Assembly: GCA_016214745.1 (NCBI GenBank)
Contig: JACRNW010000001.1
Location: 1,038-65,037, forward strand
Reading direction: 5' to 3'
Origin: Candidatus Falkowbacteria bacterium
Lineage (GTDB): Bacteria; Patescibacteriota; Patescibacteriia; XYB2-FULL-38-15
DNA length: 64,000 nt
Below are positions 9,580 through 58,165 of this stretch, piece after piece. A program made the translations under genes and the position numbers. Positions within the stretch are counted from its first letter, which is position 1, and each line of letters opens with the position of its first letter. The notes below the pieces were generated by a model. The model was not told the DNA's origin. It ran no database searches and saw only the letters and a list, made by a program, of their open reading frames with translations.

Positions 9580-9707
9580 CACTCCCTCCTTGGCTCCGGA
9601 CACTGCGAAATTGTCCAGGCCTTCATTTGTCCTATCATAAATAAAAAAATTCTGCAAACAAAAACAGAGTGATTTTTCCACTCTGTTTTTAAAAATCTTC
9701 TAAGATT

Positions 9708-13623: not shown

Positions 13624-13781
13624 AGACCTTTTGCGGGATAATTTTTCGTCGCGAAATTCATAAATTTTGAGCGAAAAATATGAAAGACGAGGAGGTTTAT
13701 TAATAATAAGCCGACGAGTTTTGAATATTTTGCAGCCAAAATTTATAATTGCAGCAGAAAGGATTATCCCGTAAAAGGTCT
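13624..13781. repeat. 19-bp inverted repeat pair bracketing the whole intergenic region (13624..13642 / 13763..13781)
   Basis: agaccttttgcgggataat and attatcccgtaaaaggtct match in 18 of 19 positions as reverse complements. Confidence 0.4.
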
Positions 13782-14646: not shown

Positions 14647-14662
14647 TTCAAGTTAATTCAAC

Positions 14663-16657
14663 TTACTGTCTGGTGCCAGAACCAGTTAGGGTGCAACTCA
14701 TGTAGTTAACTGTTCCATCAGTCGCGTAACCGACTGCATCCATAGACCCGCTACCGGAAAAAGCCGCGCCGCCGTCCTGCTCACTGAAAGCAAAGTAAAA
14801 TATTGCCGAAGCATAAGCAGTGCCACCCTCTACGGGCATTGACATCTGAAAGGATTCAATGGCCGCACCCGAATCGTCAATCGCGACATAAGTATTTACT
14901 GTGCTGTCAAACGTAACATTATTTATCACCGTAAAATCAAGCCCAAACGTATCTGAATAGGTTGGCCTACCCGGAACAGTGGTCACACAGTTGCCGGTCA
15001 ATGTTCCTGTATAATGCCCGTCCCACTGACCACCGGCCTCTCCTTCCGCCTGTAACTCGGCGGTGCTGGGCAAAAGATTTTTTTCCGTACAACCAGACTC
15101 ACCTCCCATATATCTGCCGCCAGAGTATGTCAAGAAATCCCAACACTGGGTATTGTTATTACCAATTTTGTAGTCGCAAGTATAACCAAATTCGGCGGTG
15201 GGAAGGCGGCTCTTGGCAAGCCCGGCCCCGCCTACGGTTCCGCCCTTGGCCACGCAGTCGTCGTAAAATTTTTGCACGGTCGGACTGTGGCCAGAGGATG
15301 AAGGTTCGCCGATATAGATAACGCCCATTCCTTCCAAATTATGCCAACCATTTTCCCAATCTTTTCCCGAATTCTTTTCCCCTTTAGCAAAACCTATCGC
15401 CGAAGCATCAATGCCATTTGTTGATTGCATTATCTCTTCAACACAATAAACGTTGGTCGGCCCGCCCGAACCGGTACTAATCCCGCCGCGACCAATGCAG
15501 ATTTTTCTGGCTGGCGGCTGATTACTGGTGCCACCGGTTGTACCACCAGTTGTGCCGCCGCCCGAGACGTTTCCTCCAGTATTTTGTTTCTGCTGATTAG
15601 TTTGATTTTGTTGTTGATTATTAGTTTGTGTTTGTTGTCCTGACGGTTTACACCTCGTGTCGCAATTGTACATCCGTCTTTGGTAGTCAGTCATCTTAAC
15701 GGTCGGATCACTGCAAACCTGACAAGTAACATCCATCCCCGGCCCGATGTCCGGAACTGGCGGCAAGGCAGCAAAAGCCGAAGGAATAAAATCAAACGAG
15801 AAGAAACCCGCTTTCTCGGAATGCGTAATGCCATTCAACCAATGACGCTCTACTCTTAATTTGGCGCCGACGTAAAGCATTGACACCTGATTTTTCATTT
15901 GGATGGCGCCGTCACCAAATTCTTTAAGCTCGGAAATTTTTTGGACGCTATGCTCAAATAATTGCTTGGCTTTTCTGTCGCTCAATTTTAATTTAAAATC
16001 GCCCGGGTCGTCCCTCACATCTCCCCAAACTTTTGGATCTAAAGATGCGATTCCAACTTCGTTGACCCAGTCTACGGCCGCCTCTTTATAACTCTCCAAT
16101 TCTTTGGGCACACTAAGATCTTTCAATCTTCCCGACACCATCTGAGTTTCAATGCCGACTCTCTGCCAGGAAGCGGTAACGAGTGGTTTTTTTTCTACCA
16201 ATGAATCGCCCATTATTTTTGCCACAGTCGCTTCAGCCAAATTATCCTGAATTAAAAAAAGTGAATCGGAAAATTTTTTATCGTTCAAGTCGGTTAAATA
16301 GACATAAACCCCGAAACCGGCCAAAAGCAAAATCACACCGATGATGATTGAACCGATAATCGGTTGTCGGATGATGAGACGGATTAAGGAATAAAATATA
16401 AAATAAATAAGATAAAGAATGCAAATTGCAAAAAAGGCGAGAAACGCGGATATTCCCAAAATTTCTAAACGGCTGTACTCTGCAAAGCTAGACACTCCAC
16501 TTTCCATAAAATAAAACACTGGAATTAAAACCACAAAACCCACGAACCAAATAGTGAAAAAATCAGGCTCATTGTCTTTTGTTTGGCGGTAACTGGCGTG
16601 CCGCATTTGGGGCAAAATTTCAAAAAGGCCCCCAAATTCCGGCCGCATTTTGCGCAA
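14663..16657 (-). CDS. large hypothetical membrane protein with Q/N/G/T-rich low-complexity linker and Cys-containing C-terminal region
   Basis: 664 aa with N-terminal TM helices and QQQNQTNQQKQNTGGNVSGGGTTGGTTGG. Confidence 0.55.
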   Translation of the reverse strand: MRKMRPEFGGLFEILPQMRHASYRQTKDNEPDFFTIWFVGFVVLIPVFYFMESGVSSFAEYSRLEILGISAFLAFFAICILYLIYFIFYSLIRLIIRQPIIGSIIIGVILLLAGFGVYVYLTDLNDKKFSDSLFLIQDNLAEATVAKIMGDSLVEKKPLVTASWQRVGIETQMVSGRLKDLSVPKELESYKEAAVDWVNEVGIASLDPKVWGDVRDDPGDFKLKLSDRKAKQLFEHSVQKISELKEFGDGAIQMKNQVSMLYVGAKLRVERHWLNGITHSEKAGFFSFDFIPSAFAALPPVPDIGPGMDVTCQVCSDPTVKMTDYQRRMYNCDTRCKPSGQQTQTNNQQQNQTNQQKQNTGGNVSGGGTTGGTTGGTSNQPPARKICIGRGGISTGSGGPTNVYCVEEIMQSTNGIDASAIGFAKGEKNSGKDWENGWHNLEGMGVIYIGEPSSSGHSPTVQKFYDDCVAKGGTVGGAGLAKSRLPTAEFGYTCDYKIGNNNTQCWDFLTYSGGRYMGGESGCTEKNLLPSTAELQAEGEAGGQWDGHYTGTLTGNCVTTVPGRPTYSDTFGLDFTVINNVTFDSTVNTYVAIDDSGAAIESFQMSMPVEGGTAYASAIFYFAFSEQDGGAAFSGSGSMDAVGYATDGTVNYMSCTLTGSGTRQ

Positions 16658-18994: not shown

Positions 18995-19089
18995 ATTAAT
19001 ACATTATATGCGATTATCAAAAAAATGCCAACCCCAAAATCTAAGAAAAGGTCTTGACTTGATTTTTCTCTTAAAACGTCCTAAACTAA

Positions 19090-19265
19090 GATTAATATTT
19101 ACAAAAAGGCGCGGGATTAGTATAGTGGCAGTATGCGACCTTCCCAGGCCCCCACACCAAATTCGCGAGAGTAGTTCAATGGTAGAATGCGTGCTTCCCA
19201 AGCACGAGACGGGGGTTCGATTCCCCTTTCTCGCTGATTTGGTGTAGGGGCAAGTTGAGGCGCCG
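19090..19265 (+). other. outer tRNA-Gly(CCC)-like sequence interrupted by ~105 nt that contain a complete tRNA-Gly(CCC) (probable disrupted or pseudo tRNA)
   Basis: The 5' part GCGGGAT-TA-GTAT-AGTGGCA-GTAT-G-CGACC-TTCCCA(G) is a tRNA 5' half with a CCC anticodon loop. The 3' part (A)AGTTG-AGGC-GCCGG-TTCGATT-CCGGT-ATCCCGC-T supplies a T-arm and a complementary acceptor strand. The two parts are separated by 19127..19230. Confidence 0.4.
19144..19214 (+). tRNA. tRNA-Gly (anticodon CCC)
   Basis: GCGAGAG-TA-GTTC-AATGGTA-GAAT-G-CGTGC-TTCCCAA-GCACG-AGAC-GGGGG-TTCGATT-CCCCT-TTCTCGC-T, a clean cloverleaf. It is bracketed by a 14/15-bp helix (19127..19141 pairing with 19216..19230). Confidence 0.85.
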
Positions 19266-19282
19266 GTTCGATTCCGGTATCC

Positions 19283-19424
19283 CGCTTTGAAAATACAAAT
19301 AAATTTTGGCGGAATCGAACGGGAAGGGTTTGGGAAACGGGAGTTTCCCACCTTTTCGGCGGAAAACAGTTGGGGAAAACCGCCGGTTTGCCCCAAGCGC
19401 AGTCCCGCCATGGCGGGACGAGTA
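19283..19424 (+). ncRNA. tRNA-linked structured element (copy 1) ending in a duplicate of the preceding tRNA 3' end
   Basis: TTTTGGCGGAATCGAACGGGAAGGG, hairpin GGGAAACgggaGTTTCCC, hairpin CGGCGG...CCGCCG, hairpin GCGCAGTCCCGCCATGGCGGGACGAGTAGTGAG, then ATTCCGGTATCCCGCT, which copies 19250..19265. A homologous copy lies at 28989..29120. Confidence 0.55.
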
Positions 19425-19447
19425 GTGAGATTCCGGTATCCCGCTTT

Positions 19448-19523
19448 TAAAAACTTGGCGCAATCTTTGCCGACGTAGCTCAGCCAGCAGAGCAATGCTT
19501 TCGTAAAGCAGAGGTCGTGGGTG
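19448..19523 (+). tRNA. tRNA-Thr (anticodon CGU), CCA encoded
   Basis: GCCGACG-TA-GCTC-AGCCAGCA-GAGC-A-ATGCT-TTCGTAA-AGCAG-AGGTC-GTGGG-TGCAAAT-CCCAC-CGTCGGC-T-CCA. Confidence 0.8.
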
Positions 19524-19524
19524 C

Positions 19525-19558
19525 AAATCCCACCGTCGGCTCCAGAAAACAGCAATTC
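19525..19558 (+). terminator. rho-independent terminator after tRNA-Thr
   Basis: AAAACAGCaattcatttttgaagGCTGTTTTTT. Confidence 0.55.
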
Positions 19559-28799: not shown

Positions 28800-28900
28800 A
28801 AAACTCTTGCCAAAAATAAAATGCCTTGGTATTATTATATCAAATTAAGACTAAAACGGCTATCAACGACTTCCTCGTTCTTTTTTTAAAATTTCATTAT

Positions 28901-28973
28901 GACCCGGTAGCTCAGCTGGTAGAGCATCTGCCTTTTAAGCAGAGTGTCCTGGGTTCGAGCCCCAGCCGGGTCA
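28901..28973 (+). tRNA. tRNA-Lys (anticodon UUU)
   Basis: GACCCGG-TA-GCTC-AGCTGGTA-GAGC-A-TCTGC-CTTTTAA-GCAGA-GTGTC-CTGGG-TTCGAGC-CCCAG-CCGGGTC-A. Confidence 0.9.
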
Positions 28974-28988
28974 TTTTTTATTTGCTAA

Positions 28989-29205: not shown

Positions 29206-29257
29206 TTGAGGTCGCATGGATAGTACTTTCCCAAGACCACAAGAAGGAGGTGGGGCT

Positions 29258-29938
29258 ATGGGTTGTGAAAATGATTTTGACCAGCTACGTGATCTTACCG
29301 CGCGGCAACTGTGGATGGCACTCGCGGCGGCCTACCAGGCGCTCGCGGCGGACGAAGCCCAGATCAGGGGGTTCGGTGCCGTAGTCGTAGAGGCCGATGC
29401 TCGAATCGAGGAACTCGAGAGCGAGGTCAAGCGTCTGCGACGGCTCTTGGGCATTGACTTCTTGACCGGAGTCCCAAATCACTACCACATCATGGGGCTT
29501 CTGGAAAGAGAAATCGATCGCTCTAGGCGTTCCGGCTCCACTTTCAGCCTACTCTTCCTGGACATCGACCGCTTCAAGAACGTGAACAGCAACTACGGAC
29601 ACGAGGTCGGCAGTGCTGTCCTCCACGAACTGGCCAAACGGCTCGAGGCAGCTCTGCGACTCTCCGACGCCTTGGGACGATACGGCGGAGAGGAATTCAT
29701 CTTCATCCTTCCCAATGCGCCGCGAAAGGGAGCGGAAATCGCCGCCGAACGACTTCGGAAACTCGTCGCCGCCGAACCCTTCAAGATCGGCGACAAGTCC
29801 GTGGCCGTGACAGTGAGTATCGGCGTTGCCGAGTTCCGACGGACGGATACGGCGTCAAGCCTGATCGAAGCGGCGGATATGGCCATGCTCCAAGCCAAGG
29901 ACTTGGGCCGTAACCGCGTCGTCTCGGCTGAGCGATAG
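29258..29938 (+). CDS. GGDEF-domain diguanylate cyclase with N-terminal coiled coil, GC-rich (~62% GC)
   Basis: RYGGEEF is the GG[DE]EF active site, with upstream DxLTG-like DFLTGVPNH and ...FLDIDRFKNVN. The likely start is ATG 29258 after a strong SD; the ORF track starts at 29216. Confidence 0.85.
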   Translation: MGCENDFDQLRDLTARQLWMALAAAYQALAADEAQIRGFGAVVVEADARIEELESEVKRLRRLLGIDFLTGVPNHYHIMGLLEREIDRSRRSGSTFSLLFLDIDRFKNVNSNYGHEVGSAVLHELAKRLEAALRLSDALGRYGGEEFIFILPNAPRKGAEIAAERLRKLVAAEPFKIGDKSVAVTVSIGVAEFRRTDTASSLIEAADMAMLQAKDLGRNRVVSAER

Positions 29939-40750: not shown

Positions 40751-41713
40751 TTATAAAGTAGTAATTGGCCTGGACTGGACGATGTAAAATTTCCTTTTTT
40801 CCAGTGCCCATTCAATATCGCAAGGAAATTTATAATGCTTTTCAATCGCCGCGCAGATTTTTGCGAGATCAACAATTTGCCGGCCGTCCAGTTTCTGGCG
40901 GTTCCGCAACTTTCCCGGCACTGGTTTCCTAAAAACCCCGGCAGGGCCTTTCCTTGTCCGCATCATTTCCTGCTCGCTTACATTTATGTCTAAAATTTCC
41001 CAATGCCTTTTGTCTAAAACATATGCATCCGGCGTTACTTCCCCGCCGACAAGCGACTCCCCAAGCCCAAAACAGGCTTCAATTATCATCTGATTTTTAT
41101 CACGCGTCACGGGATGGACCGTAAAACAAACGCCAGCCACTTCCGATTGCACCATTTTTTGCACCACGACCGCCACAGAAACGTGCGACCGGCGCAAACC
41201 TTTTTCATTACGGTAAAAAATCGCCCGCTCCGTAAAAAGCGACGACCAACATTTTTTTACCATGCCTAATAAATTTTGCCGCGTCACATTTAAATATGAT
41301 TCCAACTCTCCGGCCCAGGAAGCCTGCGAAGAATCCTCGGCCGTTGCCGAAGAACGAACCGCCACAAGCAAATATTTTGACGCCGCAGTTTTGGCCAAAA
41401 CGTCGTAGGCAGACAAAATTTCTTTTTGCAAATCAATTGGCATTCGCGCGTCATGGATCAAATCACGAATTTTTAGCGAGGCCTGATCAACCGAATTTAC
41501 ATCTTTATAATTTATTTTATCCAAAGCCGCTTCAATTTCCACTCCCAAATCCGTTTCTTTCAAAAATCTTTCAAACGATTGGGCTGTTACCACAAATCCG
41601 GGCGGCACATTAATTTTTGCGCTGGTCATTTCTCCGAGCGACGCTCCTTTTCCCCCGGCTAATTTCACGTCTTTTTTAGAAATTTTTGAGAATGGCAAAA
41701 TAAATTCTTTCAT
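40751..41713 (-). CDS. stand-alone PPDK_N ATP-grasp domain protein (PEP synthase / pyruvate phosphate dikinase N-terminal nucleotide-binding domain)
   Basis: VKLAGGKGASLGEMTSAKINVPPGFVVT...AVRSSATAEDS...IVQSRPITTL. It has the PPDK_N domain and no His or TIM domain. Confidence 0.8.
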   Translation of the reverse strand: MKEFILPFSKISKKDVKLAGGKGASLGEMTSAKINVPPGFVVTAQSFERFLKETDLGVEIEAALDKINYKDVNSVDQASLKIRDLIHDARMPIDLQKEILSAYDVLAKTAASKYLLVAVRSSATAEDSSQASWAGELESYLNVTRQNLLGMVKKCWSSLFTERAIFYRNEKGLRRSHVSVAVVVQKMVQSEVAGVCFTVHPVTRDKNQMIIEACFGLGESLVGGEVTPDAYVLDKRHWEILDINVSEQEMMRTRKGPAGVFRKPVPGKLRNRQKLDGRQIVDLAKICAAIEKHYKFPCDIEWALEKRKFYIVQSRPITTL

Positions 41714-41723
41714 ATAATTTAAA

Positions 41724-43340
41724 TTATTTAATAATTTTTACCACGCCGTGATTGGCGTCCACCTCTACTATATCGCCATCTTTTAAAACCTTTGTCGCGA
41801 TTTTGGTGCCGATGACACAGGGAATACGAAGTTCGCGAGCCACAATTGCCGCATGAGAAGTTACCCCACCCTGCTCCGTAACAATAGCTGCGGCTTTTTT
41901 CATGGCTGATACTAAATCTGGATTAGTGGCGATAGAAACTAAAATATCGCCCTTCCGCATCTTTTCCATGTCTTCGGGATTGATAACAATTCTCACCGCA
42001 CCCTTCGCTTTTCCTACACAACCACACTGACCTTTTATTTCGCTGACTTCTTCTGCCCCTTTTTCCCGAACTGATTCCGCTAACCTTTTTGCCTTCTCGC
42101 CCGTAAAGACCACGTCTCTCTCCTTTTCGGCGTAATAAACGCAAAGTTTTGTCCGCTTCTTAATTTCTTTTTTATCAAGTCTACTTTTCAAAAGAGCTGC
42201 CCCAACTTCCTGCGGCAGCATAAATTTTACTTGCATCAAACTCAAACCCAGTCTTCTTCCGATCTCCCGTAAAATCGCTTCCATTTGATAAATAGCAAAT
42301 ATCTGCGCATAACGGCGGTATATTTTTGTAATCATAAAATTGCCAAAAGCATCAAAAATTTTTCTCCAGCCGCCTTTGATTTTCAATTTTTTAATCAATG
42401 CATTTCTTTTTCGAACGCCCACTTTAAACTCCTGCTGCATTTCTTGATATTTCTTTTCCAAATCACCTGATACCACAAGCCTCACCAATTCTTTCAGATA
42501 ATGATCAAAACTGTAAATCCCCTGCTTTTCAGTAAAAAGATATCTCATGTAAAAATACTTAAGATAATGTTTTTCTAAAAGTTTATAAATTTCCGGACCA
42601 ATTCTTTCTTTGATTTTTCCCGCTTCTTGCTCAAACAGTTCTTCATATTTTTTTGAATGGGTTTTAAAACCGTACTTTGTTACCTCCCCCTCTTTAAACT
42701 TTTTAAATAATTCCAGAAATAATTTGAGCTGATTTTTGTCTTGTTGAACTTTTTGACCAATTTTCAAAAGTTCCTCTTGTTCAACTTGAATAAGAGATTT
42801 TTGGATTGGCTGAGTAAGAATGACTAGATGTTCATTTATTTTTTCTTCGGAAATTCCAGCGTCTCGCAGATGCTCTTTTAATCGATTAGTCAGATTATTG
42901 TGAAACATGTCAGCAGCAACCGGAATCCATCCCCAACAATAATAGTCAGTGTGAATTTGGTCATGCTTATTGTAAAATTTCCACAACTCTCGTTTAGACA
43001 ATTGCGATAAATTATCTTGTGGCAAAGTATTGGCGTAATTTCTTAACTTATCTGACCAGATTATAATCTCTTTGTTGACCCGCTCGGCGAACTTTGGATT
43101 TTTAATAAATTTTTGGACTATATTCTCACCAACCTCAAAGGAATCATTTTCCCCGTAATAAAACCAAAGATGATAACCGCGATAAATACAAATAATTTTT
43201 TTATAAGCACGACCAGTGAATCTCTTAAATTCATTAACAAAATTTGAAAGCCAGATCTGAGAAAATAAAAAATCGCAATTTGGAATCTCTTCCCCCAACA
43301 TCCACAAGTCTTTGTCATTTAAATATTTCAGCTTTTTCAT
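41724..43340 (-). CDS. PEP-utilising-enzyme mobile (phosphohistidine swivel) domain protein with ~380-aa helical N-terminal domain, paralog 1
   Basis: C-terminus [30 protein letters not shown]. Confidence 0.75.
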
Positions 43341-44839
43341 ATTTTTAATTGTTTCACAACTTTTATTACTCCTTTTGTAGCGTCGACTTCCACTAAATCT
43401 CCATCTTTTAAAACTTTAGTTGCGATTTTGGTGCCAATGACGCAAGGAATTCCCAACTCGCGGGAAATAATGGCGGCATGGGAAGTTATACCGCCCTCGT
43501 CCGTAACAATAGCCGCGGCTTTTTTCATCAAAGGCACATATTCCGGCCTCGTCATGCCGGCTACTAAAATTTCTCCTTTTTCAAGCTTAGCGCCTTTTGG
43601 ATTTAATACTACACGCACCCGCCCCCGAACTTTTCCTCCGGAAGCCGCTGAACCCTTCAATATATTATCTTTGATTTGAATATTTTGAGCAATGATCTTT
43701 TCGGCAAACTTTAAATATTTTTTTCCAGACAAAATTATTCTTTCTCCGTCGTCTTTGTTAATTGATATAAATAACTTTTGGCGCCGTTTTATTTCTTCTT
43801 TGTCATATTGACCATTGGATTTTAAAAATTCAATAAACTCCGGCGCAATCATAAAATGTAAATCAACAAAGGGGACGTTAAACTTTTTGGCTGCTAATTC
43901 CATAATTGTACCGACGGCGTAATTCATATATAAGCCGGTTTTCTTTCTAGCATCTTGCCAAAAACTGGCCACGGCAAACATTTCTAAAAATTGTGCGTCT
44001 TTTTTTAATATTAAATATTTTTTAATCAATTCCCGTTTTTTAGATTTAATATTTTGTTCGTAGTTTTCCAATTTTTCTATTTCTCCCTTGATCTCCCGCC
44101 GAGATTTACCCCTAGTAAGTTCTTGGGCACTTCGCCAAAATTCCCTTTCGCTCACATTTTTATGTTCATAATAACCATTCTCTATCCAAAAATATTTCTT
44201 TTGATGAGATTGAATTAATTGTTTTATTTCTCGAGAAGCCGATCCGTAAGATTTGATTAATTGATCTTTGGCTTTCAGCGCAATGCGCATCAAACCAAGA
44301 TTATTTTCCGCCGAGAAACTCAAACGAGGCTCTTTTAATAATTTAAACAAATCATCGCCGGAAATTTTATATTTATTCTTTATTCCATTTATGTCCTCTT
44401 CGCCAATCATTGATGGCGCTTCAGGTATTGTGGCTCGCCCAAATTCGTAATGAAATTTTTCGGTAATCAATCTATATGATTCCAACAATGGCAGAAAATT
44501 GTTTCTTGCTCTTTGCTGGACAAGGTCAATAAATTCTTTCGCTTCTTTCTGCCAAATGTCAAAATGGTCTTGCACTTTTTTAATATTTTTCTTAAACCAT
44601 TTATAATTCTTAGCCAATTCCGCCTTGTCAAGCACCCAATGAGCTTTCCTGCCGCCATCAAAAATCACACTAAATAAAAATGTATTCATTGAAAACCCAA
44701 GCGTGTCTTTGCTACCGGCACACCAGGCCTCCTCCGCGAGATCATCAAAATGCGGACGCAAAACCGGACCATAAATAGATTTATCCTTTATTGCCTTCAA
44801 TTTTTCTTCCAATATTTGTAATTTTTCCCGGTCATCCAT
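43337..44839 (-). CDS. phosphohistidine swivel domain protein, paralog 2
   Basis: [30 protein letters not shown], plus the shared N-domain motifs ([12 protein letters not shown]; ...[10 protein letters not shown]). Confidence 0.75.
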
Positions 44840-45118
44840 ATATTTATTTTTTGTTCATGTTTCTTTTTCAGTCTCCTTGTCCAATCTAATCGCGTCGCAA
44901 TAATGCGCAGACACCGCACCCATTTGACAAAATTTTCAAAATAGATTATACTATATTGTTTGGTAAAGGTGAAAAATTGTCTGATTCTAGACAATTTTTC
45001 CCATACTAAATTGCACTTTGATAGTGGGCAAAAATTGTTTGGAGACGCTCTATTTATCTCGGTTGAGGTAACGAGAGCGTCTTCAAACAACCGCCCCGAG
45101 GGGGCAAGGAGGAGATCA

Positions 45119-45727
45119 ATGCCCGCAACGATCGTCGTGGTTCGCCATCCCGAGAAGGACGGAGACAAGATCACCCCGCACGGCGCAGAGCAGGCCTTTG
45201 CGGCGGCGCTGGCGCTCGGCGAACGGTTCAAGAACTTCGAAGGGTTCGACCGGCTCATCCACTCCGGCGCGCACCGCGCCTGGCAAGCGCTCCGCGTCAT
45301 GGCCGCGGCCCTGGGTCTGAAACTCCCGGACGAAGAGCGCTCCTTCTTGAACTTCACGGCCACACTCACGCAGACGCTCGGCAGCTCCGACGCGTTCTAC
45401 GCCGAAGTGGCCAAGATGAAGGCGGCGGAAGGAACGGACCGGCTGACGCTCGCCATGGCGCTCCGCCACAGCGAGTTCGCTCGCCAAGGCCGCCAGATCA
45501 TGATCAATGGTCTCCTCGGTCTTGCCTGTGACATGGCGATGAGGGGCCAGGCGACGGCACTCACCGTTTCCCATTCGCCCTGGCTCGAACTGGCGTCCTT
45601 CGACACCGAGAACACGCCCTACGGCATCGGCGAAAGCGATGCCGTGATCTACGTCGTGGCGGGCGACGAAATCCTCGTCGGGAGCGAACTCGTCCGAGCC
45701 CCGCTCCCCGGCAAGCCGCTTTTCTAG
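45119..45727 (+). CDS. histidine phosphatase superfamily protein (SixA/PGAM-like), GC-rich (~64%)
   Basis: MPATIVVVRHPEKDGDKITPHG (RH-type catalytic motif) and a later TVSHSPW. A strong SD CAAGGAGGAG precedes ATG 45119. The ORF track's longer frame from 44960 is AT-rich leader. Confidence 0.55.
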   Translation: MPATIVVVRHPEKDGDKITPHGAEQAFAAALALGERFKNFEGFDRLIHSGAHRAWQALRVMAAALGLKLPDEERSFLNFTATLTQTLGSSDAFYAEVAKMKAAEGTDRLTLAMALRHSEFARQGRQIMINGLLGLACDMAMRGQATALTVSHSPWLELASFDTENTPYGIGESDAVIYVVAGDEILVGSELVRAPLPGKPLF

Positions 45728-45757
45728 CCTACCTCACCTTTCCCACCGAAGTGCATC

Positions 45758-45796
45758 TCCCACGCCCGGTCTCCTGACTGGGCGTTCTTTTTTTAT
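45758..45796 (+). terminator. rho-independent terminator
   Basis: CACGCCCGGtctcctgaCTGGGCGTTCTTTTTTTATTT. Confidence 0.5.
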
Positions 45797-46051
45797 TTAC
45801 CCTGTTAAATAAGATTTGAGCCGATTCCTTAAAAATAACTTGCCGAGATAGGTCTTTAAATACTTTTCTCTATGGGTGGCATCTTGTTGATTCAAACAAG
45901 CCTCATAATATATTAAAACTAATGGCCCTCTGTCTTTAGTAGATTCAACTTTCCTTTTTTGATGAAGCTCAAATCTTGATTTTAAATCTTTGGTATAACC
46001 TGTGTAGAATTTTTTATCCTTTAAGGACATCAAAACATATACGTAATGCAT
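45797..46051 (-). CDS. GIY-YIG nuclease superfamily small protein
   Basis: 84 aa. HYVYVLMSLKDKKFYTGYTKDLKSRFELHQ is the GIY-(10-11)-YIG module. Confidence 0.7.
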   Translation of the reverse strand: MHYVYVLMSLKDKKFYTGYTKDLKSRFELHQKRKVESTKDRGPLVLIYYEACLNQQDATHREKYLKTYLGKLFLRNRLKSYLTG

Positions 46052-46061
46052 AGATTTAAAA

Positions 46062-47576
46062 TCATTTAACGGGGTGAATTTTTTTAACTACTCCTTTTGT
46101 CGCGTATACTTCAACTAAATCTCCATCCTTCAAAACCTTCGTCGCGATTTTTGTTCCGATGACGCAAGGTTTTTTCATTTCTCGGGCGACAATGGCCGCG
46201 TGGCACATAATGCCGCCTTCGTCAGTGACAATAGCCGCAGCTTTGCGAATGGCGGGCATTAAGTTTGGGCTAGTGGCGGCGGAAACCAAAATATCTTTTT
46301 CATTCATTTTTTTTATTTCTTCGGGAGTATTTATCAACTTCACCTTTCCCCTTGCCTTACCCTTAAAGGCGACTGCCCCAGTAATTTCCTTCACCGCTTT
46401 TATCTCTTTCTCTTTCCCGGCATTCTCGTGAAAAAAATCTTGCGCCTGTTTACCGGTCAGACAAAGTTTTCTTCCGCCCTTTCTCCCGTAAACAACTAAT
46501 TTAATTCGTTCGTTAATAACGCCAGAATTAATTTTCCCCCTAAGCAATGCCTCTTCCATTTCTTCCGGCAACATCATCCTGACTTGTTTCAAACTTAGAC
46601 GTAAACGTTTTGCAATTTCTTTTAGTAAAAATTCTGCGTGATAGTATGACCAGGTTTGTAATTCGCGGCGATAAGGTTTGAAAAAGACCAAATCCCTGGC
46701 TAACTCAATGATATTCCGCTCGTAATCGTTGGCTTTAATTTGTTTTAATATTTTCTTTTGCTGTGATCTAATATCTGATTTACTCTTTTTGTGTTCTGCT
46801 ATTTCCTTGGAGGGATTTATTTCCCGACGAATAAAATCTTTGATTATATCAAGAAAATAAATATGATCTGCCGCCGGTCCCTCGTAAACGTAATGCACCC
46901 AAGCGTATCTTTGGGTATGATTATCCACCAACCGCCAAACTTTTTTATTATTCTCCCTAATATATTTTACTAATTCTTGTGAATCTAAAACTTTAAATTT
47001 CTTTTCCAAATTTTTATATTTTTTAATTTGAATCAAAACTTTCAAGAGATCCAACTCCTGCTGTTTATTAAAGGTTTCACGCAAGGGCGTAGTCAGTTCT
47101 CCAAAATATTTTTCCGCTTTTTTATTTTTAAGAATTCTATTTAATTCATCCGATAAAAAAGTCGTGTTTTGATAATCCAAGAGGGGAGAAATTAAACCAT
47201 ACGCATACACTTCTTGATTTGATAACACATAATGCTGATAATAATTGTTCAAAACTCTATTACTCTTTCCTTTTAAATTACTTTTAAAAATTTTCGTAAA
47301 AGATGCCTGTTCCAAACCAAGTTTTTCCATTTGCGAAAAAATATTTCTCAAAAAATTTTGATTTTTCTTAATTAGTTTTACAATTGCAAAATGTGCCGCG
47401 CCCCAATTACTCGGCAGATGATAATACTCAATCGCGTTATTCTCAATTTTGAAAAAAAGGTCCCCCGACTTCCCTATTATCTTTTTTATATTTTTGCTGA
47501 ACGCTTCTACCATCGTGAATATGGGAAATAGAGAAACAACATATTCATTGGCTATCTTTTGCCATTTTTCTTTCAT
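46062..47576 (-). CDS. phosphohistidine swivel domain protein, paralog 3
   Basis: [30 protein letters not shown], plus the shared N-domain motif QRYAWVHYVYEGP. Confidence 0.75.
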   Translation of the reverse strand: MKEKWQKIANEYVVSLFPIFTMVEAFSKNIKKIIGKSGDLFFKIENNAIEYYHLPSNWGAAHFAIVKLIKKNQNFLRNIFSQMEKLGLEQASFTKIFKSNLKGKSNRVLNNYYQHYVLSNQEVYAYGLISPLLDYQNTTFLSDELNRILKNKKAEKYFGELTTPLRETFNKQQELDLLKVLIQIKKYKNLEKKFKVLDSQELVKYIRENNKKVWRLVDNHTQRYAWVHYVYEGPAADHIYFLDIIKDFIRREINPSKEIAEHKKSKSDIRSQQKKILKQIKANDYERNIIELARDLVFFKPYRRELQTWSYYHAEFLLKEIAKRLRLSLKQVRMMLPEEMEEALLRGKINSGVINERIKLVVYGRKGGRKLCLTGKQAQDFFHENAGKEKEIKAVKEITGAVAFKGKARGKVKLINTPEEIKKMNEKDILVSAATSPNLMPAIRKAAAIVTDEGGIMCHAAIVAREMKKPCVIGTKIATKVLKDGDLVEVYATKGVVKKIHPVK

Positions 47577-47591
47577 ATTTTTACTATTAAT

Positions 47592-49127
47592 TTACTTAAT
47601 TACTTTTACCACTCCCTTTGTCGCGTCTACTTCCACCAAATCTCCGTCTTTTAAAATTTTACTAGCATTTTTTGTACCAATAATACATGGCTTATTCATC
47701 TCGCGCGCGACGATTGCCGCATGAGAAGTAATGCCGCCGATATCTGTCACGAAAGCCGCGGCTAATTTCATGGCTGGCAAAAGCTGAGGAATGGTTTGAA
47801 CTGCCACTAGAATATCATCTTTTTTTATTTTCTTCATCTCGTACGGCTCGTTGATAATTTTCACCACTCCCCTAACCTTGCCGGCGCAGGCAATATTACC
47901 TTTAATAACACCTGTTTTGACTACCCGCTCGATCTGGAATTTTTCTCTGATAATTTTTTCGGCTTTTTCCCCGGTAAAAATTCTTAAATCGTTAAGATCC
48001 TTAACGTAATTTACGCAAAAATTATATCTTTGTCTCAACATGCTAACCCTGGGAATTTTTCCGCCCCTTAGCATTCTAATGAACTCGAATCTGGTTAAAT
48101 TTTGTAAATCCTTGTAATCTTTTCCTGAACTCCGGGCAAATCTTTTTAAGGATAAGGTCAAAAGGTAAAAAGTGAAAAATAGTAATTCTGAACGAATCAT
48201 CTTTGCTCCGGCAAATTCTCGGGCAGTCTCAAAATAATGCCTTTCACCCTCATCCAAATTAAGCTCTTTGAAATACTGCTCTTGCAATTTAATCAAAGGT
48301 CGCAAGTCAACTGATTCTTTTAAATTTCCTAATTCTTTTTTATCTTCTAAAATCACCTCTATTTTTTCTATTAATTTTTTCAGATCCATTTCTGGGCCAA
48401 TGTGACCGTAGTCTATCCATCTAAACTGATAAACCAAATCATTCAATCCCGAGAACAAGGCGGGGTAATTCCTTTTCAATAATGAAAATAACCTTGGGGT
48501 CGGGCTTTCCAAAAAAATATTTTTTATTTTTAATCTTTCTATTTCCTGACAAATATCAAATAATTTCTTTTTAAAAATAAAACTTTTTGTTTTTAACGAT
48601 GTCTTACCTAAAACGCCCACATAACTCCCAAGGGATCTTTTCAATTTATATTGCTCAATCTTTTTATTAACAATTTTTTCCAAAGCGTTGGAAAGCCCGT
48701 AGTGACTTAAATCGGCCATCACTGCTCCAAACCCCACGCTGCAAATTTTAAAAAATGTTTCAATTGCCTCTTCCCATTTATCGGCTATCTTTTTGAAATT
48801 GGGATTTTCATTTTCCAACAAATCAAAGATTTCATAATATTTTTTATAAAGATCAACCGCAATCTCTTCGGTTTTGATCAATATCTTTTTCCCATAATTT
48901 TTTTCACTATGAATCTTCTTGGCAATTTTTTCTCCCAAAACCCGCAAAATATCTGGATTGCAAAACCATTCTTCCGTGCCTCCTTTAAAGAGGACATAAT
49001 TATCTCTCATCCGGGGCAATCCCAAATATTCCTCTATTAATTTATGAGAAAATGCTTCTTGGTTAATGGTAATATTAAGAAAAACGGTATTATTTTCTTT
49101 GTGGGTTGAAACGTATTTCTTTTCCAT
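47592..49127 (-). CDS. phosphohistidine swivel domain protein, paralog 4
   Basis: [30 protein letters not shown], plus the N-domain motif QFRWIDYGHIGP. Confidence 0.75.
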   Translation of the reverse strand: MEKKYVSTHKENNTVFLNITINQEAFSHKLIEEYLGLPRMRDNYVLFKGGTEEWFCNPDILRVLGEKIAKKIHSEKNYGKKILIKTEEIAVDLYKKYYEIFDLLENENPNFKKIADKWEEAIETFFKICSVGFGAVMADLSHYGLSNALEKIVNKKIEQYKLKRSLGSYVGVLGKTSLKTKSFIFKKKLFDICQEIERLKIKNIFLESPTPRLFSLLKRNYPALFSGLNDLVYQFRWIDYGHIGPEMDLKKLIEKIEVILEDKKELGNLKESVDLRPLIKLQEQYFKELNLDEGERHYFETAREFAGAKMIRSELLFFTFYLLTLSLKRFARSSGKDYKDLQNLTRFEFIRMLRGGKIPRVSMLRQRYNFCVNYVKDLNDLRIFTGEKAEKIIREKFQIERVVKTGVIKGNIACAGKVRGVVKIINEPYEMKKIKKDDILVAVQTIPQLLPAMKLAAAFVTDIGGITSHAAIVAREMNKPCIIGTKNASKILKDGDLVEVDATKGVVKVIK

Positions 49128-49136
49128 AAAATATTC

Positions 49137-50675
49137 TTAAATTTTTTTCACAATCCCCCTTGTCGCATCAACCTCCACTAAATCTCCATCCCTCAAAACT
49201 TTCGTAGCAATTTTCGTGCCGACGACACAGGGAATTTTTAATTCCCGAGAGACAATCGCCGCATGGCACGTCAAACCGCCAACGTTCGTAACAATAGCCG
49301 AAGCAAGTTTCATGGCCGGAACAAGAGCCGGATAAGTTGTTTCGCTCAACATCACATCTCCCTTTTTCATTTTTTTCAAATCATCTACTGTCTCAATTAT
49401 TGACACTCGCCCCTTCGCCCTTCCTGGCGAAGCGCAAATCCCAAATAATTTTTCTACTTTTTTAACTTTCTGTTCAACAAATGTAGATCTGTCCAGAAAT
49501 TCCTGCGCCGCCTTACCGATATAAACCACCGGCCGATGAACGCTATCGGTATAAATCAGACTAAAATTATATCTCTCATTTAATTTGTTGGCATCATACT
49601 TATCTTTTAATAATGCGTCTTTCACCTCCCAATTACAGAAAAATCTTACCTGCCTTAAACTTAAACCAAGTCTTCGTCCAATTTCTTTGGCTATTTTATC
49701 CAAAACATAGGCGCCATAATACATACAATCTTTGCGCCAACTCTTCAACCAAACAATATCTCTTGCGATATCAAAAAGTTTTTTCTCTTTCTTGCTAAAA
49801 TTTAATTGTTTAAAAATTTTTACCCTTTTTTTCTTTATCTCCGCAAATTTATTCTTACCCTCTTCTATCAATTCCTCAATATTATTTTGTTTCAGAAGTC
49901 CTCGCCAAATTTCCAAAAAATATTCTAATTCAAGAACTGGCCCTTCGTAGTTATAGTGTAACCAAAGATATTTTTGATAATGCTTTTTTATCTTCTGTTG
50001 TAAAGAGGGGCTAATCTTGTTCAGATTTTTTTTGATCTCATCAATATTATTTTTCAAAAATAAATTTTTTGTTTTCTGATCTTTTTTCAACAACTTAACT
50101 AACTCTAATGATTCTTTTGATTCAATCTCAATAAAACTGGATTTTTCGGGGGTGGTAAGAACACTAAATGTCTCTGATAATTTTTGATCAGATTTAACTT
50201 TCTTTTTTAATAAATCTAAAAGATAATTACTAAAAAGTTGGCGATCAGCTTCCAGGAGCCACGTGGTTATTTGTCCAGGAAGATGAGACCAATATTGGCG
50301 GTCAATCAATTGATCAAAAACTCCCGCCAATTGCTTGCCTGATAGTGCCGAAAAATCTTTATTTTCTAAACTTTTTGCAAAAGAAAAATAATTCTTGGTA
50401 TATTTTACCAATTCTGAATTTCTTTTTTCTGTCCATTCGGGATATTTAACAGTTTTATTGAGCAAAAAATTTATACCCTTAGTAAAATCATCTCTTAAAT
50501 AACAAAGTGTAAGCGTGCCTTCATTTACAATAAATAAAACATGCTTGAAGTGTGGGCCGCCGCCTTTTTTCTCTATGTAAGTACCGTACTCTTCAAGAAA
50601 CGGCACAAGCATAAGGTAGTTGCACTTTGGGATTTTTTCAATTTTGAACCATCTAAATTTCTTTATTTCTTCCAT
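49137..50675 (-). CDS. phosphohistidine swivel domain protein, paralog 5
   Basis: ASAIVTNVGGLTCHAAIVSRELKIPCVVGT, plus N-domain motifs QKYLWLHYNYEGP and [13 protein letters not shown]. Confidence 0.75.
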   Translation of the reverse strand: MEEIKKFRWFKIEKIPKCNYLMLVPFLEEYGTYIEKKGGGPHFKHVLFIVNEGTLTLCYLRDDFTKGINFLLNKTVKYPEWTEKRNSELVKYTKNYFSFAKSLENKDFSALSGKQLAGVFDQLIDRQYWSHLPGQITTWLLEADRQLFSNYLLDLLKKKVKSDQKLSETFSVLTTPEKSSFIEIESKESLELVKLLKKDQKTKNLFLKNNIDEIKKNLNKISPSLQQKIKKHYQKYLWLHYNYEGPVLELEYFLEIWRGLLKQNNIEELIEEGKNKFAEIKKKRVKIFKQLNFSKKEKKLFDIARDIVWLKSWRKDCMYYGAYVLDKIAKEIGRRLGLSLRQVRFFCNWEVKDALLKDKYDANKLNERYNFSLIYTDSVHRPVVYIGKAAQEFLDRSTFVEQKVKKVEKLFGICASPGRAKGRVSIIETVDDLKKMKKGDVMLSETTYPALVPAMKLASAIVTNVGGLTCHAAIVSRELKIPCVVGTKIATKVLRDGDLVEVDATRGIVKKI

Positions 50676-57211: not shown

Positions 57212-57430
57212 TCAGGCCGCGGCGGGCTTGCGCGCCTTCGCCGCCTTGACCATGGCGCGAAGCTCCTCGCTGCAGAGATCGTGCCAACGCGCGATGAAAT
57301 TGTCCACCTTCTCCTGCGGACAACAGCCGCCCGCTTCAGCAAGATGGATGAGCCGGACAACCTGAACCTTCTCGTGCCGAATCCTGGCCAGCTCACTGCG
57401 CCTCTTTCTGGGCTTGTGCCTTCTCGCCAT
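57212..57430 (-). CDS. small basic hypothetical protein, GC-rich
   Basis: 72 aa, MARRHKPRKRRSELARIRHEK..., high GC3. Confidence 0.35.
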   Translation of the reverse strand: MARRHKPRKRRSELARIRHEKVQVVRLIHLAEAGGCCPQEKVDNFIARWHDLCSEELRAMVKAAKARKPAAA

Positions 57431-57451
57431 AACGCGCCTCCTGCAGCCGAA

Positions 57452-58040
57452 CTACAGCCCGGCCTTGGCCAGAGCCGCGAGCGACCGACCGTCGGTGGAC
57501 TGCCTCCGGAACTCGTCCGGGGTCATGCCCTCCGCATCCGGGAAGTCGGCGTTCACGAAGGTAGACGGCGATCACGCCCGCAATGCGCTGAGGATTCGAC
57601 TCGAAGAAGTTCGAATCGTAGAAGTTGCCGACGAGCTTGCCCTTGTCGGCCAATTCGCCCTTGGAGATACTGGACGGCCTGAGCTCCAAAACCTCGCCGT
57701 TCAGGCCCTTGGTCCTTCGCACCCGCACCCGCGGCGCGCCGTATCTGTTCATCTCGATCACGACGTGGCCCACGACGCGCGGACTGCCGTCCTCGGGCGG
57801 CGGGACATTCGGCTCTTCGTAGAGCGCGATCTGTCCCCAACCGCCGCGATCCACGTAGCGGGCGTCGTGGAACTTGCCGTCACCTCGACCACTTCGACCC
57901 GTCGCCGGGTCGAAGCACCAAAGCTCGGCGGCCTTGCCTCCGCCGATCTTGGCGCCGCGCACGTCATCGGGTTCGAGACAGACGACGACATTCTCGCCCA
58001 GACGCCTTTGCGCCTCTTCCAACGTGATGATCTCCGGCAT
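57452..58040 (-). pseudogene. GC-rich hypothetical gene with apparent frameshift near 57545..57575
   Basis: A strong SD (AAGGAAGGAGAGGAG) precedes ATG 58040 (MPEIITLEEAQRRL...). A high-GC3 frame runs to ~57560, where GC3 signal switches to another frame that ends ...TFVNADFPDAEGMTPDEFRRQSTDGRSLAALAKAGL* at 57452. The tail of the track ORF (57393..) is an Arg/Gly-rich off-frame readthrough. Confidence 0.45.
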
Positions 58041-58165
58041 CTCTCCTCTCCTTCCTTGAAGCCCCCTTGGCTTCTTGTTGATATTGATAAGATTAAAGTA
58101 AAAAATTAAAAATGTCAAGAATCAAAAAGCGGCCTTGCGGCCGCTTGCTTTTTATTTAATATTTT

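Follow-up and report, generated by a model that had tools for sequence, protein, structure and literature searches.

A histidine-phosphatase-superfamily gene is a conserved antisense partner of split dikinase arrays in CPR bacteria

Gene X, which encodes a 202-aa protein of the histidine-phosphatase superfamily within the 64,000-nt stretch of Candidatus Falkowbacteria DNA analyzed here (the window), is a conserved and probably dedicated partner of the split dikinase arrays of CPR bacteria and not a stray insert. X lies in or beside an array of swivel-domain genes in 15 of 15 informative lineages and is found on the opposite strand every time, including for members that are 22–24% identical to the X of the window. 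The stray-insert reading fails because the same arrangement is seen in at least 15 related lineages. In the window, X sits antisense between the second and third of five swivel-domain paralogs, and the locus is made up of the following genes:

40751–41713, minus strand: stand-alone PPDK_N (ATP-grasp) subunit (PF01326, E = 1e-103)
41724–43340 and 43337–44839, minus strand: swivel paralogs 1 and 2, with a variable N-terminal domain and a phospho-His swivel domain (GGITSHAAI)
45119–45727, plus strand: gene X, histidine-phosphatase superfamily, with RHP replacing RHG, R9/H10/R53/H152 and a helical cap
45797–46051, minus strand: stand-alone GIY-YIG gene, 84 aa, GC 0.31 (PF01541, E = 5.2e-14, profile positions 1–72 of 78)
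46062–47576, 47592–49127 and 49137–50675, minus strand: swivel paralogs 3–5, with a PEP-utilizers swivel domain

The array and its conserved linkage to X

The five paralogs are proteins of ~500 aa with a C-terminal PEP-utilizers swivel domain (PF00391, E = 1e-23 to 1e-28). The His of the TSH motif is invariant in all five, and strong conservation among them is confined to the swivel domain. Over residues 618–865 (~240 residues), which comprise the end of the substrate domain and the swivel domain, the profile of the paralogs aligns with rifampin phosphotransferase (5fbs/5hv1). An AF2 model of paralog 2, built from the five paralogs, had a pLDDT of 40 and was unusable. Judged from its domain content, the array around X has the architecture of a split dikinase, with a stand-alone ATP-grasp subunit and separate His-swivel subunits. 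Substrate binding and His swivel are joined in one subunit, as in rifampin phosphotransferase and the two-component dikinases (HpeHI, CreHI, PpsAB, and AcvAB with AcvF), and the latter also have a separately encoded ATP-grasp subunit and a system-linked phosphatase. The CPR arrays differ from the two-component dikinases in having one ATP-grasp gene per 2–8 tandem paralogs, in that X belongs to the histidine-phosphatase superfamily whereas the phosphatase of those systems is a HAD enzyme, and in that X is always antisense, with a promoter, leader and terminator of its own.

Relatives of X were collected by a locus search with alignment A1, which gave three genome loci and six metagenome loci, and by a profile search with the wide alignment A2 in a database of 5.8 billion proteins, which gave at least four further proteins. 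The linkage counts start from the X genes found (17 distinct) and not from arrays. Fifteen of these 17 genes are located ≤1.5 kb from PEP-utilizer swivel genes, usually together with a stand-alone PPDK_N gene (PPDK_N homologs near X were seen at loci L004, L006, L011, L017, L020, L024, and L025). Each array has a single X and a single PPDK_N, regardless of whether it contains two or eight paralogs. Extra phosphatases are present in some arrays, namely a HAD protein in L010, a second His_Phos_1 protein in L024 and L028, and an LMWPc-type protein in L006, the gene for which is antisense and GC-rich within its array.

The X proteins are 20–60% identical across lineages, and the closest relative of the window locus is L001, with an X that is 84% identical. 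X is not more alike between lineages than PPDK_N, which gives no sign of recent sharing, but PPDK_N is compressed to 56–67% identity and the comparison is uninformative on co-inheritance. A scan of viral contigs found no relatives of X. The preliminary description of this DNA had left it open whether the phosphatase gene was a partner of the array or a hitchhiker carried by the GIY-YIG gene, and had taken absence from all related arrays as the mark of a hitchhiker. That absence is decisively contradicted by the 15 lineages, which favor a partner, while carriage by the GIY-YIG gene fell away.

The low-GC GIY-YIG gene is indeed present beside X, as had been described. Comparison of the window with L001 showed that a ~280-bp segment (about 45799–46079), which holds exactly this gene, is missing in L001. 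The gene is single copy in the window, and no GIY-YIG gene was found beside X at any other of the loci of the 17 distinct X genes. From this comparison it appears to be a lineage-specific local insertion, separate from the conserved X module. Its 84-aa product corresponds to a complete catalytic domain of the stand-alone GIY-YIG family, which is very large (>5600 clusters, of which the 120 listed are 72–100% identical). A group I intron homing endonuclease of the I-TevI type was considered and rejected, as the protein consists of the catalytic domain alone, has no DNA-binding domain and reaches 22.7 of the 56 bits that TIGR01453 requires.

None of the ~72 ORFs of the window is as strong a GC3 outlier as X (GC 65.5%, against ~64% in the preliminary description; GC3 0.84, median of the ORFs 0.42), and the codon adaptation of X is the second lowest. 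The flanks have ~36% GC and the flanking array genes a GC of 0.34–0.37 with a GC3 of 0.33–0.37. Such atypical composition would suit a horizontally acquired passenger, as would the four more GC-rich single genes in the window, one of which adjoins a tRNA. Yet in 16 of 17 cases X is far richer in GC than its flanks. As this GC-richness is common to X genes whose proteins are merely 20–60% identical, a recent high-GC donor, which had been expected, is not supported. Polarized substitutions between the window and L001 number 20 GC>AT against 5 AT>GC; they were rejected as evidence for amelioration since saturated GC-rich outgroups bias the polarization. Shuffling of synonymous codons in the X coding sequence gave a z-score of −0.8 for the window and negative values in eight of nine lineages (range −3.2 to +0.4). 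The excess of structure in the coding sequence is thus no more than mild, and structure beyond composition is not established.

Fold and family of X

The X protein begins with MPATIVVVRHPEKDG. Its AF2 model (pLDDT 91.4, pTM 0.88) shows a predicted PGAM-like α/β histidine-phosphatase fold, and the best 50 listed Foldseek matches in the PDB are all His_Phos_1 proteins (probability 1.00, E = 3.6e-8 to 3e-6) with query-normalized TM-scores of about 0.47–0.64. The leading matches are small-molecule phosphatases (RosC, PGAM-family proteins, CobC, TIGAR, and GpgP), and the protein phosphatases PGAM5 and Sts-1 are also found among the structural and profile matches. Sequence identity to the solved His_Phos_1 structures is 13–16%. 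A sequence search of the PDB with X alone gave no relevant match, and a profile search gave weak His_Phos_1 matches (E ≥ 0.045). PF00300 scores 18.1 bits on the X of the window (E = 0.0023) against a gathering cut-off of 21.7, and it matches 20 of 39 family members at E ≤ 0.01, the best at 1.3e-10.

An alignment of 13 sequences shows no variation at R9, H10, and H152 and almost none at R53; with 39 sequences H10 remains invariant and R9, R53, and H152 are ≥90% conserved. The third position of the RHG motif is Pro in the close X subfamily and Gly across the wider family, which gives the family signature RH(G/P)EKxGD. Between β-3 and β-4 the model places a helical insert of ~60 residues (about residues 80–141, with predicted helices at 80–86, 90–104, 111–117, and 119–141), and the region of this cap, at about residues 64–135, is the least conserved of the alignment. 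The cap region of PGAM-like enzymes, as Rigden reportedly described in 2008, determines small-molecule specificity. Judging by its residues and the model, X is a member of branch 1 of the histidine-phosphatase superfamily (PF00300) and probably catalytically competent, in agreement with the superfamily assignment made earlier. It shares with RosC, CobC, TIGAR, GpgP, and PGAM5 the fold, the catalytic His within an RH(G/P) motif, two Arg residues, another His, and a helical cap that follows β-3. It differs from them in scoring below the Pfam cut-off, in the RHP of the close subfamily, in its own signature, and in having a fixed genomic partner.

The affinity to SixA that had been proposed for the protein is not borne out. 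SixA is a protein of ~160 aa without a cap subdomain, and with its 202 aa and ~60-residue helical insert X does not have this minimal architecture. An hhalign comparison with an E. coli SixA sequence gave a probability of 11.7% over 61 columns that cover the N-terminal motif only, and the SixA structure 4hbz matched the X profile with an E-value of 0.12. X and SixA (targets ArcB HPt, NPr, and Ndk) have the superfamily and the N-terminal RHG and Arg motifs in common, and a functional analogy is possible if X targets swivel phospho-His; no linkage of SixA to dikinase genes is known. Nor does X match the cofactor-dependent PGAM enzymes. No NCBIfam family, the dPGM equivalog included, matches X at E ≤ 0.01, and PGAM structures are 13–16% identical. 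X is neither specifically SixA-like nor a PGAM; it represents a distinct family of ~200-aa proteins (196 representatives at 50% identity), the genes of which keep the same genomic partner.

Promoter, leader and 3′ UTR of X

The strong SD and the terminator of its own that had been described for the gene on the opposite strand are both present, and they belong to a longer series of candidate control elements:

44924–44952, plus strand: promoter-like site of X, TTGACA-17-TATACT, 11 of 12 positions matching
44973–44945, minus strand: weaker promoter-like site facing paralog 2, overlapping the −10 of the X promoter
44958–45011, plus strand: 5′-terminal nested stem-loop of the X leader (P0, 44958–44965/45004–45011; P1, 44971–45000, ~13 bp)
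45012–45028, plus strand: single-stranded leader motif UGCACUUUG-AUA-GUGGG, conserved and complementary to the 3′ UTR
45035–45090, plus strand: leader hairpin P2, with a 17-bp outer stem (45035–45051/45074–45090) and a 7-bp inner stem
45093–45105, plus strand: small GC hairpin GCCCC-GAG-GGGGC, directly before the SD
45106–45114, plus strand: SD AAGGAGGAG, 4 nt before the ATG (GGAGG core 45108–45112, 6 nt from the ATG)
45742–45755, plus strand: 3′-UTR anti-motif, CCCAC (45742–45746) and CGAAGUGCA (45747–45755), pairing with the leader motif
45762–45795, plus strand: intrinsic terminator of X, 10-bp stem (45762–45785) with 7 GC pairs, then a T7 run

X would be transcribed alone, antisense to the array, from the near-consensus promoter. 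Near-consensus promoters are also found upstream of X in L001, L017, L019, L020, and L029, often with a TGTGC extended −10, and equivalent terminators are found downstream of X at the other loci. The structure model of the leader (R1) matches upstream of X in six lineages, the 5′ stem-loop shows compensatory changes in 9 of 22 pairs, and GCACTTT of the leader motif is invariant in five lineages.

The 10-bp inverted repeat that had been reported at about 45060–45085 as a possible operator is real, but its arms GAGACGCTCT/AGAGCGTCTT are located at 45042–45051/45074–45083 and form the core of the 17-bp stem of P2. The four substitutions that separate the window from L001 in this stem all preserve pairing via G.U or A-U, and they do so on the plus strand only; the repeat is more plausibly an RNA hairpin within a conserved leader than an operator in the DNA. 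L002, L020, L021, and L029 have a long hairpin of unrelated sequence at the position of P2.

The X mRNA is predicted to be GC-rich and highly structured. Both the MFE and the centroid structure of the 840-nt X transcript pair the leader motif with 45742–45755, and the complementarity between leader motif and 3′ UTR is seen in six lineages with covariation, including G.U pairs; in L014 the covariation is lineage-specific. Complementary motifs on both sides of the ORF could also be expected of a passenger gene, but the G.U pairs and the lineage-specific covariation are easier to explain by RNA pairing than by terminal repeats. DNA-level readings of the complementarity (terminal inverted repeats, an invertible segment) were rejected for the same two reasons, and also because X keeps its orientation at all loci and no recombinase gene is conserved nearby. 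Searches of the X leader and 3′ UTR against Rfam 15 gave sub-threshold miRNA or CRISPR-repeat look-alikes that reflect the hairpins. No further copy of the leader motif TGCACTTTGA precedes the other GC-rich genes in the window, and unconstrained RNAduplex runs of whole leaders against 3′ UTRs were uninformative, also for X.

There is a resemblance to the UTR pairing in Bacillus subtilis hbs (PMC5737220) and Staphylococcus aureus icaR (PMC3868564), where a structured 5′ UTR and a strong SD are also seen and a long-range helix between 5′ and 3′ UTR lies just upstream of the terminator, as predicted for the X mRNA. The predicted pairing of X differs in that it closes a GC-rich ORF of anomalous composition and persists, with covariation, in different CPR lineages.

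Possible role of X and its meaning

We tentatively favor the reading that X is the separately regulated phosphatase of a split small-molecule dikinase system. The arrays, with PPDK_N and substrate-binding/His-swivel subunits, would install a phosphate that X would remove, most likely from the phosphorylated small-molecule products, and X might reverse or reset the system under regulation of its own, with a variable cap that would adapt it to lineage-specific substrates. This is consistent with the small-molecule phosphatases that head the list of structural neighbors, with the poor conservation of the cap, said to be the specificity region, with the linkage in all informative lineages, and with the match of the paralogs to rifampin phosphotransferase. 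The other types of phosphatase in L010, L024, L028, and L006 point the same way. Two-component dikinase pathways also have a dedicated phosphatase: AcvF acts on the phosphorylated intermediate (doi 10.1101/2022.04.28.489975), and in the Hpe pathway carboxylation of the phosphorylated compounds precedes removal of the phosphate (PMC12167813). However, the product phosphatases known from dikinase clusters are HAD enzymes. One would also expect a partner in the pathway to share the operon, but X is antisense in every case and under its own control. A kinase and a product phosphatase would also make a futile cycle unless separated in time, protein phosphatases (PGAM5, Sts-1) are found among the structural neighbors, and a single X for 2–8 paralogs is easier to reconcile with a target common to all of them, for instance the swivel phospho-His, than with products that vary.

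It is possible, though on the unlikely side, that X is a phosphohistidine phosphatase that drains phospho-His from the swivel domains and switches off all paralogs, as an antagonist of the single PPDK_N with a SixA-like action. One X and one PPDK_N per array at any paralog number would suit this, as would the swivel domain being the only strongly conserved part that the paralogs share, and a gene that is consistently antisense, with its own promoter and leader, would suit an antagonist. PGAM5 and Sts-1 are again among the structural and profile matches, and a second gene in an array, the LMWPc-type gene of L006, is likewise antisense and GC-rich. The LMWPc family is best known for protein phosphatases. 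There is precedent in SixA, which removes phosphate from NPr (PMC7948535, PMC6282199) and from the phospho-His intermediate in Ndk catalysis, the latter with inhibition of phosphoryl transfer (PMC12934123). Yet specific similarity to SixA was not found in the NCBIfam and hhalign comparisons described above, X has a helical cap that SixA lacks, and X evolves fast while its proposed target is highly conserved. The extra phosphatases of several arrays would also be unneeded for a single conserved target.

A more far-reaching proposal, which we regard as doubtful, is that X founds a CPR-specific histidine-phosphatase clade that erases swivel phosphohistidine as a master off-switch against the ATP-grasp subunit. 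The dosage of X would then be set by a previously undescribed, armored mRNA with a 5′-terminal stem-loop, closure of the 5′ and 3′ UTRs, and a GC-rich coding body selected in AT-rich genomes.

PPDK and PEP synthase are regulated through phosphorylation of the Thr adjoining the catalytic His. X might in the same way remove a regulatory phosphate from Thr or Ser beside the catalytic His of the swivel domains (TSH) and so reactivate the dikinases, which is the phosphatase role of PDRP/PSRP. The T-S-H motif is kept in the swivel domains (GGITSHAAI) and the Ser/Thr phosphatase PGAM5 is among the best matches of X, but a kinase for the TSH site was not identified in the arrays and PDRP/PSRP come from an unrelated family; we consider this role improbable.

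Very improbable and largely refuted is the reading of X as a horizontally acquired, GC-rich passenger that is functionally unlinked to the array, landed there by chance and was possibly moved by the adjoining GIY-YIG gene or bounded by inverted repeats, as the same family is found in the same context and orientation down to 22% identity, the comparison with L001 shows the nuclease gene to have been inserted separately, and copies in viral contigs and a conserved neighboring recombinase gene were not found.

Tandem arrays of swivel-domain, dikinase-like proteins are a conspicuous and uncharacterized feature of these CPR genomes, and X offers a concrete biochemical entry point to them. A conserved and separately controlled phosphatase partner implies a reversible phosphorylation cycle in the arrays. 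If X acts on swivel phospho-His, it would add a new clade to the very small number of known bacterial phosphohistidine phosphatases, and a catalytic phospho-His intermediate would be regulated across many paralogs together. The covarying helix between the 5′ and 3′ UTRs is a candidate for a new post-transcriptional element in bacteria where very few RNAs have been studied experimentally. As X stays 15–30 percentage points above genome GC at 20–60% protein identity, it also provides a clean natural test case that could help to separate mRNA-level selection or biased conversion from horizontal transfer.

Gene X and the dikinase arrays

Gene X lies on a 145-kb contig of Candidatus Falkowbacteria (CPR/Patescibacteria) and encodes a protein of 202 aa (N-terminus MPATIVVVRHPEKDG) identical to NCBI HZB93_00290. 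On both sides it is flanked by an array, all on the - strand, of five ~500-aa proteins with C-terminal PEP-utilizers swivel domains. All elements named in the preliminary description (the GC-rich gene, its SD and terminator, the GIY-YIG gene, the array and an inverted repeat) were found again, with slightly corrected coordinates:

40751..41713, - strand, stand-alone PPDK_N protein
44924-44952, + strand, promoter-like site of X, TTGACA-17-TATACT
45106-45114, + strand, SD of X, AAGGAGGAG
45119..45727, + strand, gene X
45762-45785, + strand, terminator closing the X unit, 10-bp GC-rich stem then T-run
45797..46051, - strand, GIY-YIG ORF, 84 aa (GC 0.31; PF01541, E 5e-14)

The paralogs retain the catalytic-His motif GGITSHAAI. 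Their profile matches the rifampin phosphotransferase structures 5fbs and 5hv1 over residues 618-865, which correspond to the end of the substrate-binding domain and the swivel domain, and the NCBIfam models RPH, PEP-synthase-like and PigC match the same paralog region. As in the two-component small-molecule dikinases HpeHI, CreHI and PpsAB (PMC12167813), the PPDK_N gene is separate from the substrate/swivel proteins, but the CPR arrays have one ATP-grasp gene for 2-8 tandem paralogs. The swivel-coding 3' part of each paralog is markedly GC-richer than the N-terminal part (0.42-0.47 vs. 0.29-0.35; window positions 41800-42100, 43450-43750, 46150-46450, 47650-47950 and 49150-49450), and the swivel peptides are nearly identical among the window paralogs, which is compatible with purifying selection or gene conversion. 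Near the array of L002, a related locus in a Patescibacteria MAG, a 36-aa PEP-utilizers fragment is followed by two LAGLIDADG endonuclease genes (13490-16545); here an intron or intein element may interrupt a swivel gene or an RNA gene close by.

Seventeen distinct X genes were collected from independent assemblies in NCBI MAGs, JGI, ENA and Logan (the window, L001, L002, L004, L006, L010, L011, L014, L017, L019, L020, L021, L024, L025, L027, L028 and L029), and all named sources are Patescibacteria (Falkowbacteria, Magasanikbacteria and 'Patescibacteria group'). A swivel-domain gene is found <1.5 kb from X in 15/17 contigs, usually adjoining X directly or with X between PPDK_N and the array; the remaining two contigs cover too little sequence for a judgement (1.7 and 2.4 kb). 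X is on the strand opposite to the swivel genes in 15/15 informative contigs, and the linkage extends to X-family members (P0110 and P0145) that share just 22-24% identity with the window protein. X thus belongs to the array neighbourhood as a conserved component. Its antisense position beside split dikinase arrays is likewise conserved, and it has its own promoter, structured leader and terminator. The suggestion that X is a chance passenger is essentially excluded by this linkage. In L029, a DUF6922/AbiEii toxin-antitoxin-like pair and TsaD come after X (1061-1941), and the 2.4-kb contig shows no swivel gene; this could be an exception to the linkage or just reflect how short the contig is.

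Nor is X carried by the GIY-YIG gene, one of two alternatives in the preliminary description. This gene is absent from all other X loci compared, and alignment with the closest relative, L001 (X protein 84%, CDS 89%, promoter and leader 90% identical, the latter two at the nucleotide level), reveals ~280 extra bp in the window (about 45799-46079) that hold exactly the GIY-YIG ORF and sit between the X terminator and the stop codon of paralog 3. The GIY-YIG gene is therefore a local insertion unrelated to X. It is single-copy within the window, and its protein falls below the group I intron endonuclease model. The protein family spans >5600 clusters; among 120 clusters listed, identity is 72-100% and relatives come from Patescibacteria and also Candidatus Udaeobacter. 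In so small a protein, such conservation suggests that the gene is widely mobile or under strong constraint.

Composition of gene X

With GC 0.655 and GC3 0.84, compared to 0.34-0.37 and 0.33-0.37 for the flanking genes, X is the most extreme GC3 outlier among ~72 window ORFs (median GC3 0.42). Its codon adaptation to window usage (0.57 vs. a median of 0.74) is the second lowest among 45 genes. X is far GC-richer than its flanks in 16/17 lineages (GC 0.46-0.71 and GC3 0.44-0.98, L024 apart; array genes GC3 0.20-0.53), the sole lineage lacking the excess being L024 (X GC3 0.24 vs. 0.22).

The X proteins differ by 40-80% between lineages and have diverged more than the adjacent PPDK_N, except in the window/L004 pair (0.61 vs. 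0.56), so nothing points to recent sharing, and their synonymous sites must have reached saturation. After a single ancient import, the composition should have ameliorated by now. The analysis turned up neither a GC-rich host context for X nor a phage copy or a conserved mobile-element gene. The GC excess could reflect selection on the mRNA for stability or structure, the use of rare codons to hold back an enzyme at risk of futile cycling with the dikinases, GC-biased gene conversion, or repeated replacement from an unsampled GC-rich pool. The X family is richer in Gly, Ala, Arg and Pro than the array proteins, and the CDS shows only a mild structure excess over synonymous-codon shuffles. Polarising the window/L001 substitutions gave 20 GC>AT against 5 AT>GC changes, a balance skewed by saturated, GC-rich outgroups.

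X is the most extreme case of a mosaic rather than unique, since the window holds four other GC-rich single genes (GC3 0.63-0.71 vs. the median of 0.42):

7851-8456, - strand, GC-rich single gene
8992-9681, - strand, GC-rich single gene
29216-29938, + strand, GC-rich single gene
57393-58118, - strand, GC-rich single gene

Codon adaptation in the window is lowest in these genes. Two lack a Pfam match, and the others encode a CDP-alcohol phosphatidyltransferase and a GGDEF diguanylate cyclase. The latter gene sits a short way downstream of tRNA-Lys (28900-28974), at a classic island site. Two further tRNA genes on the + strand, tRNA-Gly(CCC) (19165-19235) and tRNA-Thr(CGU) (19469-19544), decode GC-rich codons; the - strand ORF mechanically called over them (19004-19555) is probably spurious.

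Leader and 3' UTR of X

The leader of X contains the following stems:

44958-45011, + strand, P0/P1 nested stem-loop, from about the predicted 5' end, upstream of P2
45035-45051 / 45074-45090, + strand, P2 hairpin, 17-bp stem plus inner 7-bp stem

The core of P2 is the inverted repeat of the preliminary description, located at 45042-45051 / 45074-45083. The repeat is real, but its reading as a possible operator is disfavoured: all four window/L001 substitutions in the 17-bp stem keep pairing (G.U or A-U) on the + strand only, which argues for an RNA hairpin. In L002, L020, L021 and L029 the place of P2 is taken by long hairpins whose sequences are unrelated. P0/P1 is followed by a conserved single-stranded motif, ACUAAAUUGCACUUUGAnAnnGGG, and this block aligns across the window, L001, L002, L020 and L021 (X proteins down to 34% identical) with compensatory changes in 9/22 pairs. 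A covariance model of the block found a further instance upstream of X in L014 (E 0.048), and Rfam gave no match for the leader. The -10 of the X promoter (44947-44952) overlaps that of a - strand promoter-like site facing paralog 2 (TTCACC-17-TATAAT, 44973..44945), and X and the downstream array half could perhaps be transcribed mutually exclusively. The -35 of the - strand site (44945-44973 region) also belongs to the P1 stem, so the overlap may be coincidental.

The leader motif is complementary, as two helices, to the 3' UTR just before the terminator.

Helices between leader and 3' UTR of X (leader/3' UTR)
Window: UGCACUUUG/CGAAGUGCA and GUGGG/CCCAC
L002: GCACUUUGA/UCAAAGUGC and GGGAAA/UUUCCC
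L021: UUGCACUUUU/AAAAGUGCAA and UGGGAUU/AAUCCCA
L014: a different helix of 11-12 bp, UUGACAAGAGG/CCUCUUGUCAA

These duplexes are better than shuffles in 484-500 of 500 cases, and for the L014, L020 and L021 leaders the best partner is their own 3' UTR. Compared with dinucleotide shuffles, folding of the 840-nt transcript predicted for the window is 5.35 sd better, and both the MFE and the centroid structure include the closing helix. Taken alone, the window duplex (-20.9 kcal/mol, against -19.7 for the best tile from the window's X CDS) is only marginally better than background, and the main support for the putative 5'/3' closure is its conserved position and the covariation seen between lineages. 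Pairing between the UTRs controls stability or translation for hbs in B. subtilis (PMC5737220) and icaR in S. aureus (PMC3868564).

Fold and possible substrate of X

Sequence methods by themselves are weak for X: the Pfam His_Phos_1 match (E 0.0023) is under the gathering score, no NCBIfam family is matched, and a PDB profile search gave matches, nearly all histidine phosphatases, with E of at least 0.045. Structure is clearer. The AF2 model (13 homologues in the alignment, pLDDT 91.4) has 209 Foldseek matches in the PDB at E <= 0.001, of which the best 50 are all branch-1 histidine phosphatases (12-17% identical to X), including RosC, PGAM-family proteins, PGAM5, CobC, TIGAR, GpgP and phosphoserine phosphatase. 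Conservation of the catalytic residues R9/H10/R53/H152 extends from the close family to a 39-member sample of the wider family (20/39 match PF00300). Fold and residues bear out the initial assignment to the histidine-phosphatase superfamily, and the modelled fold is catalytically intact. An exhaustive HMMER search (1.84 billion representatives) returned 196 cluster representatives at E <= 0.001, almost all of 185-230 aa, which makes the X family a distinct one of ~200 aa. The canonical RHG motif of the wider family is RHP in the close subfamily: at codon 11 of X (45149-45151), Pro takes the place of the near-universal Gly in 13/13 close homologues.

A specific affinity to SixA did not hold up, as hhalign of X against E. 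coli SixA (an approximate sequence) gave a probability of 12%, and X has a helical insert of ~60 residues (H80-141, the cap) between beta-3 and beta-4 of the AF2 model. SixA is not known to have an insert of this type. The insert is the least conserved stretch of the family alignment.

We infer the substrate of X, and hence its biological meaning: X would remove phosphate installed by the dikinase system. Its substrate is tentatively taken to be the phosphorylated small-molecule products, because the cap is variable, small-molecule phosphatases are its closest relatives in structure, dedicated phosphatases are known from dikinase pathways (AcvF, doi 10.1101/2022.04.28.489975; the Hpe pathway, PMC12167813), and some arrays carry extra phosphatases of other families. 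Additional phosphatase genes recur in the arrays:

L006 15645-16052, + strand, LMWPc-type gene, also antisense and GC-rich (0.46 vs. 0.31)
L010 1723-2334, - strand, HAD hydrolase
L019 1953-2567, + strand, tandem second X paralog
L024 5681-6442, - strand, second, longer His_Phos_1 paralog
L028 792-1682, - strand, second, longer His_Phos_1 paralog

The second His_Phos_1 paralogs of L024 and L028 are 253-296 aa long. The main rival, in which X works on the swivel domains as a phosphohistidine phosphatase, seems somewhat less likely to us. It would fit the ratio of a single X and a single PPDK_N to many paralogs and the separate, antagonist-like regulation of X, and SixA itself acts on NPr and on the phosphorylated catalytic His of Ndk (PMC7948535, PMC12934123).

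In the literature searched, where absence is not proof, we found no published description of these CPR arrays, the X family, its GC anomaly or its leader. Three findings are solid and unexpected: the linkage and the GC anomaly, both conserved, and the 5'/3' closure with its covariation. X represents a new subfamily of histidine phosphatases whose genomic partner looks obligate and whose mRNA is of unusual design.
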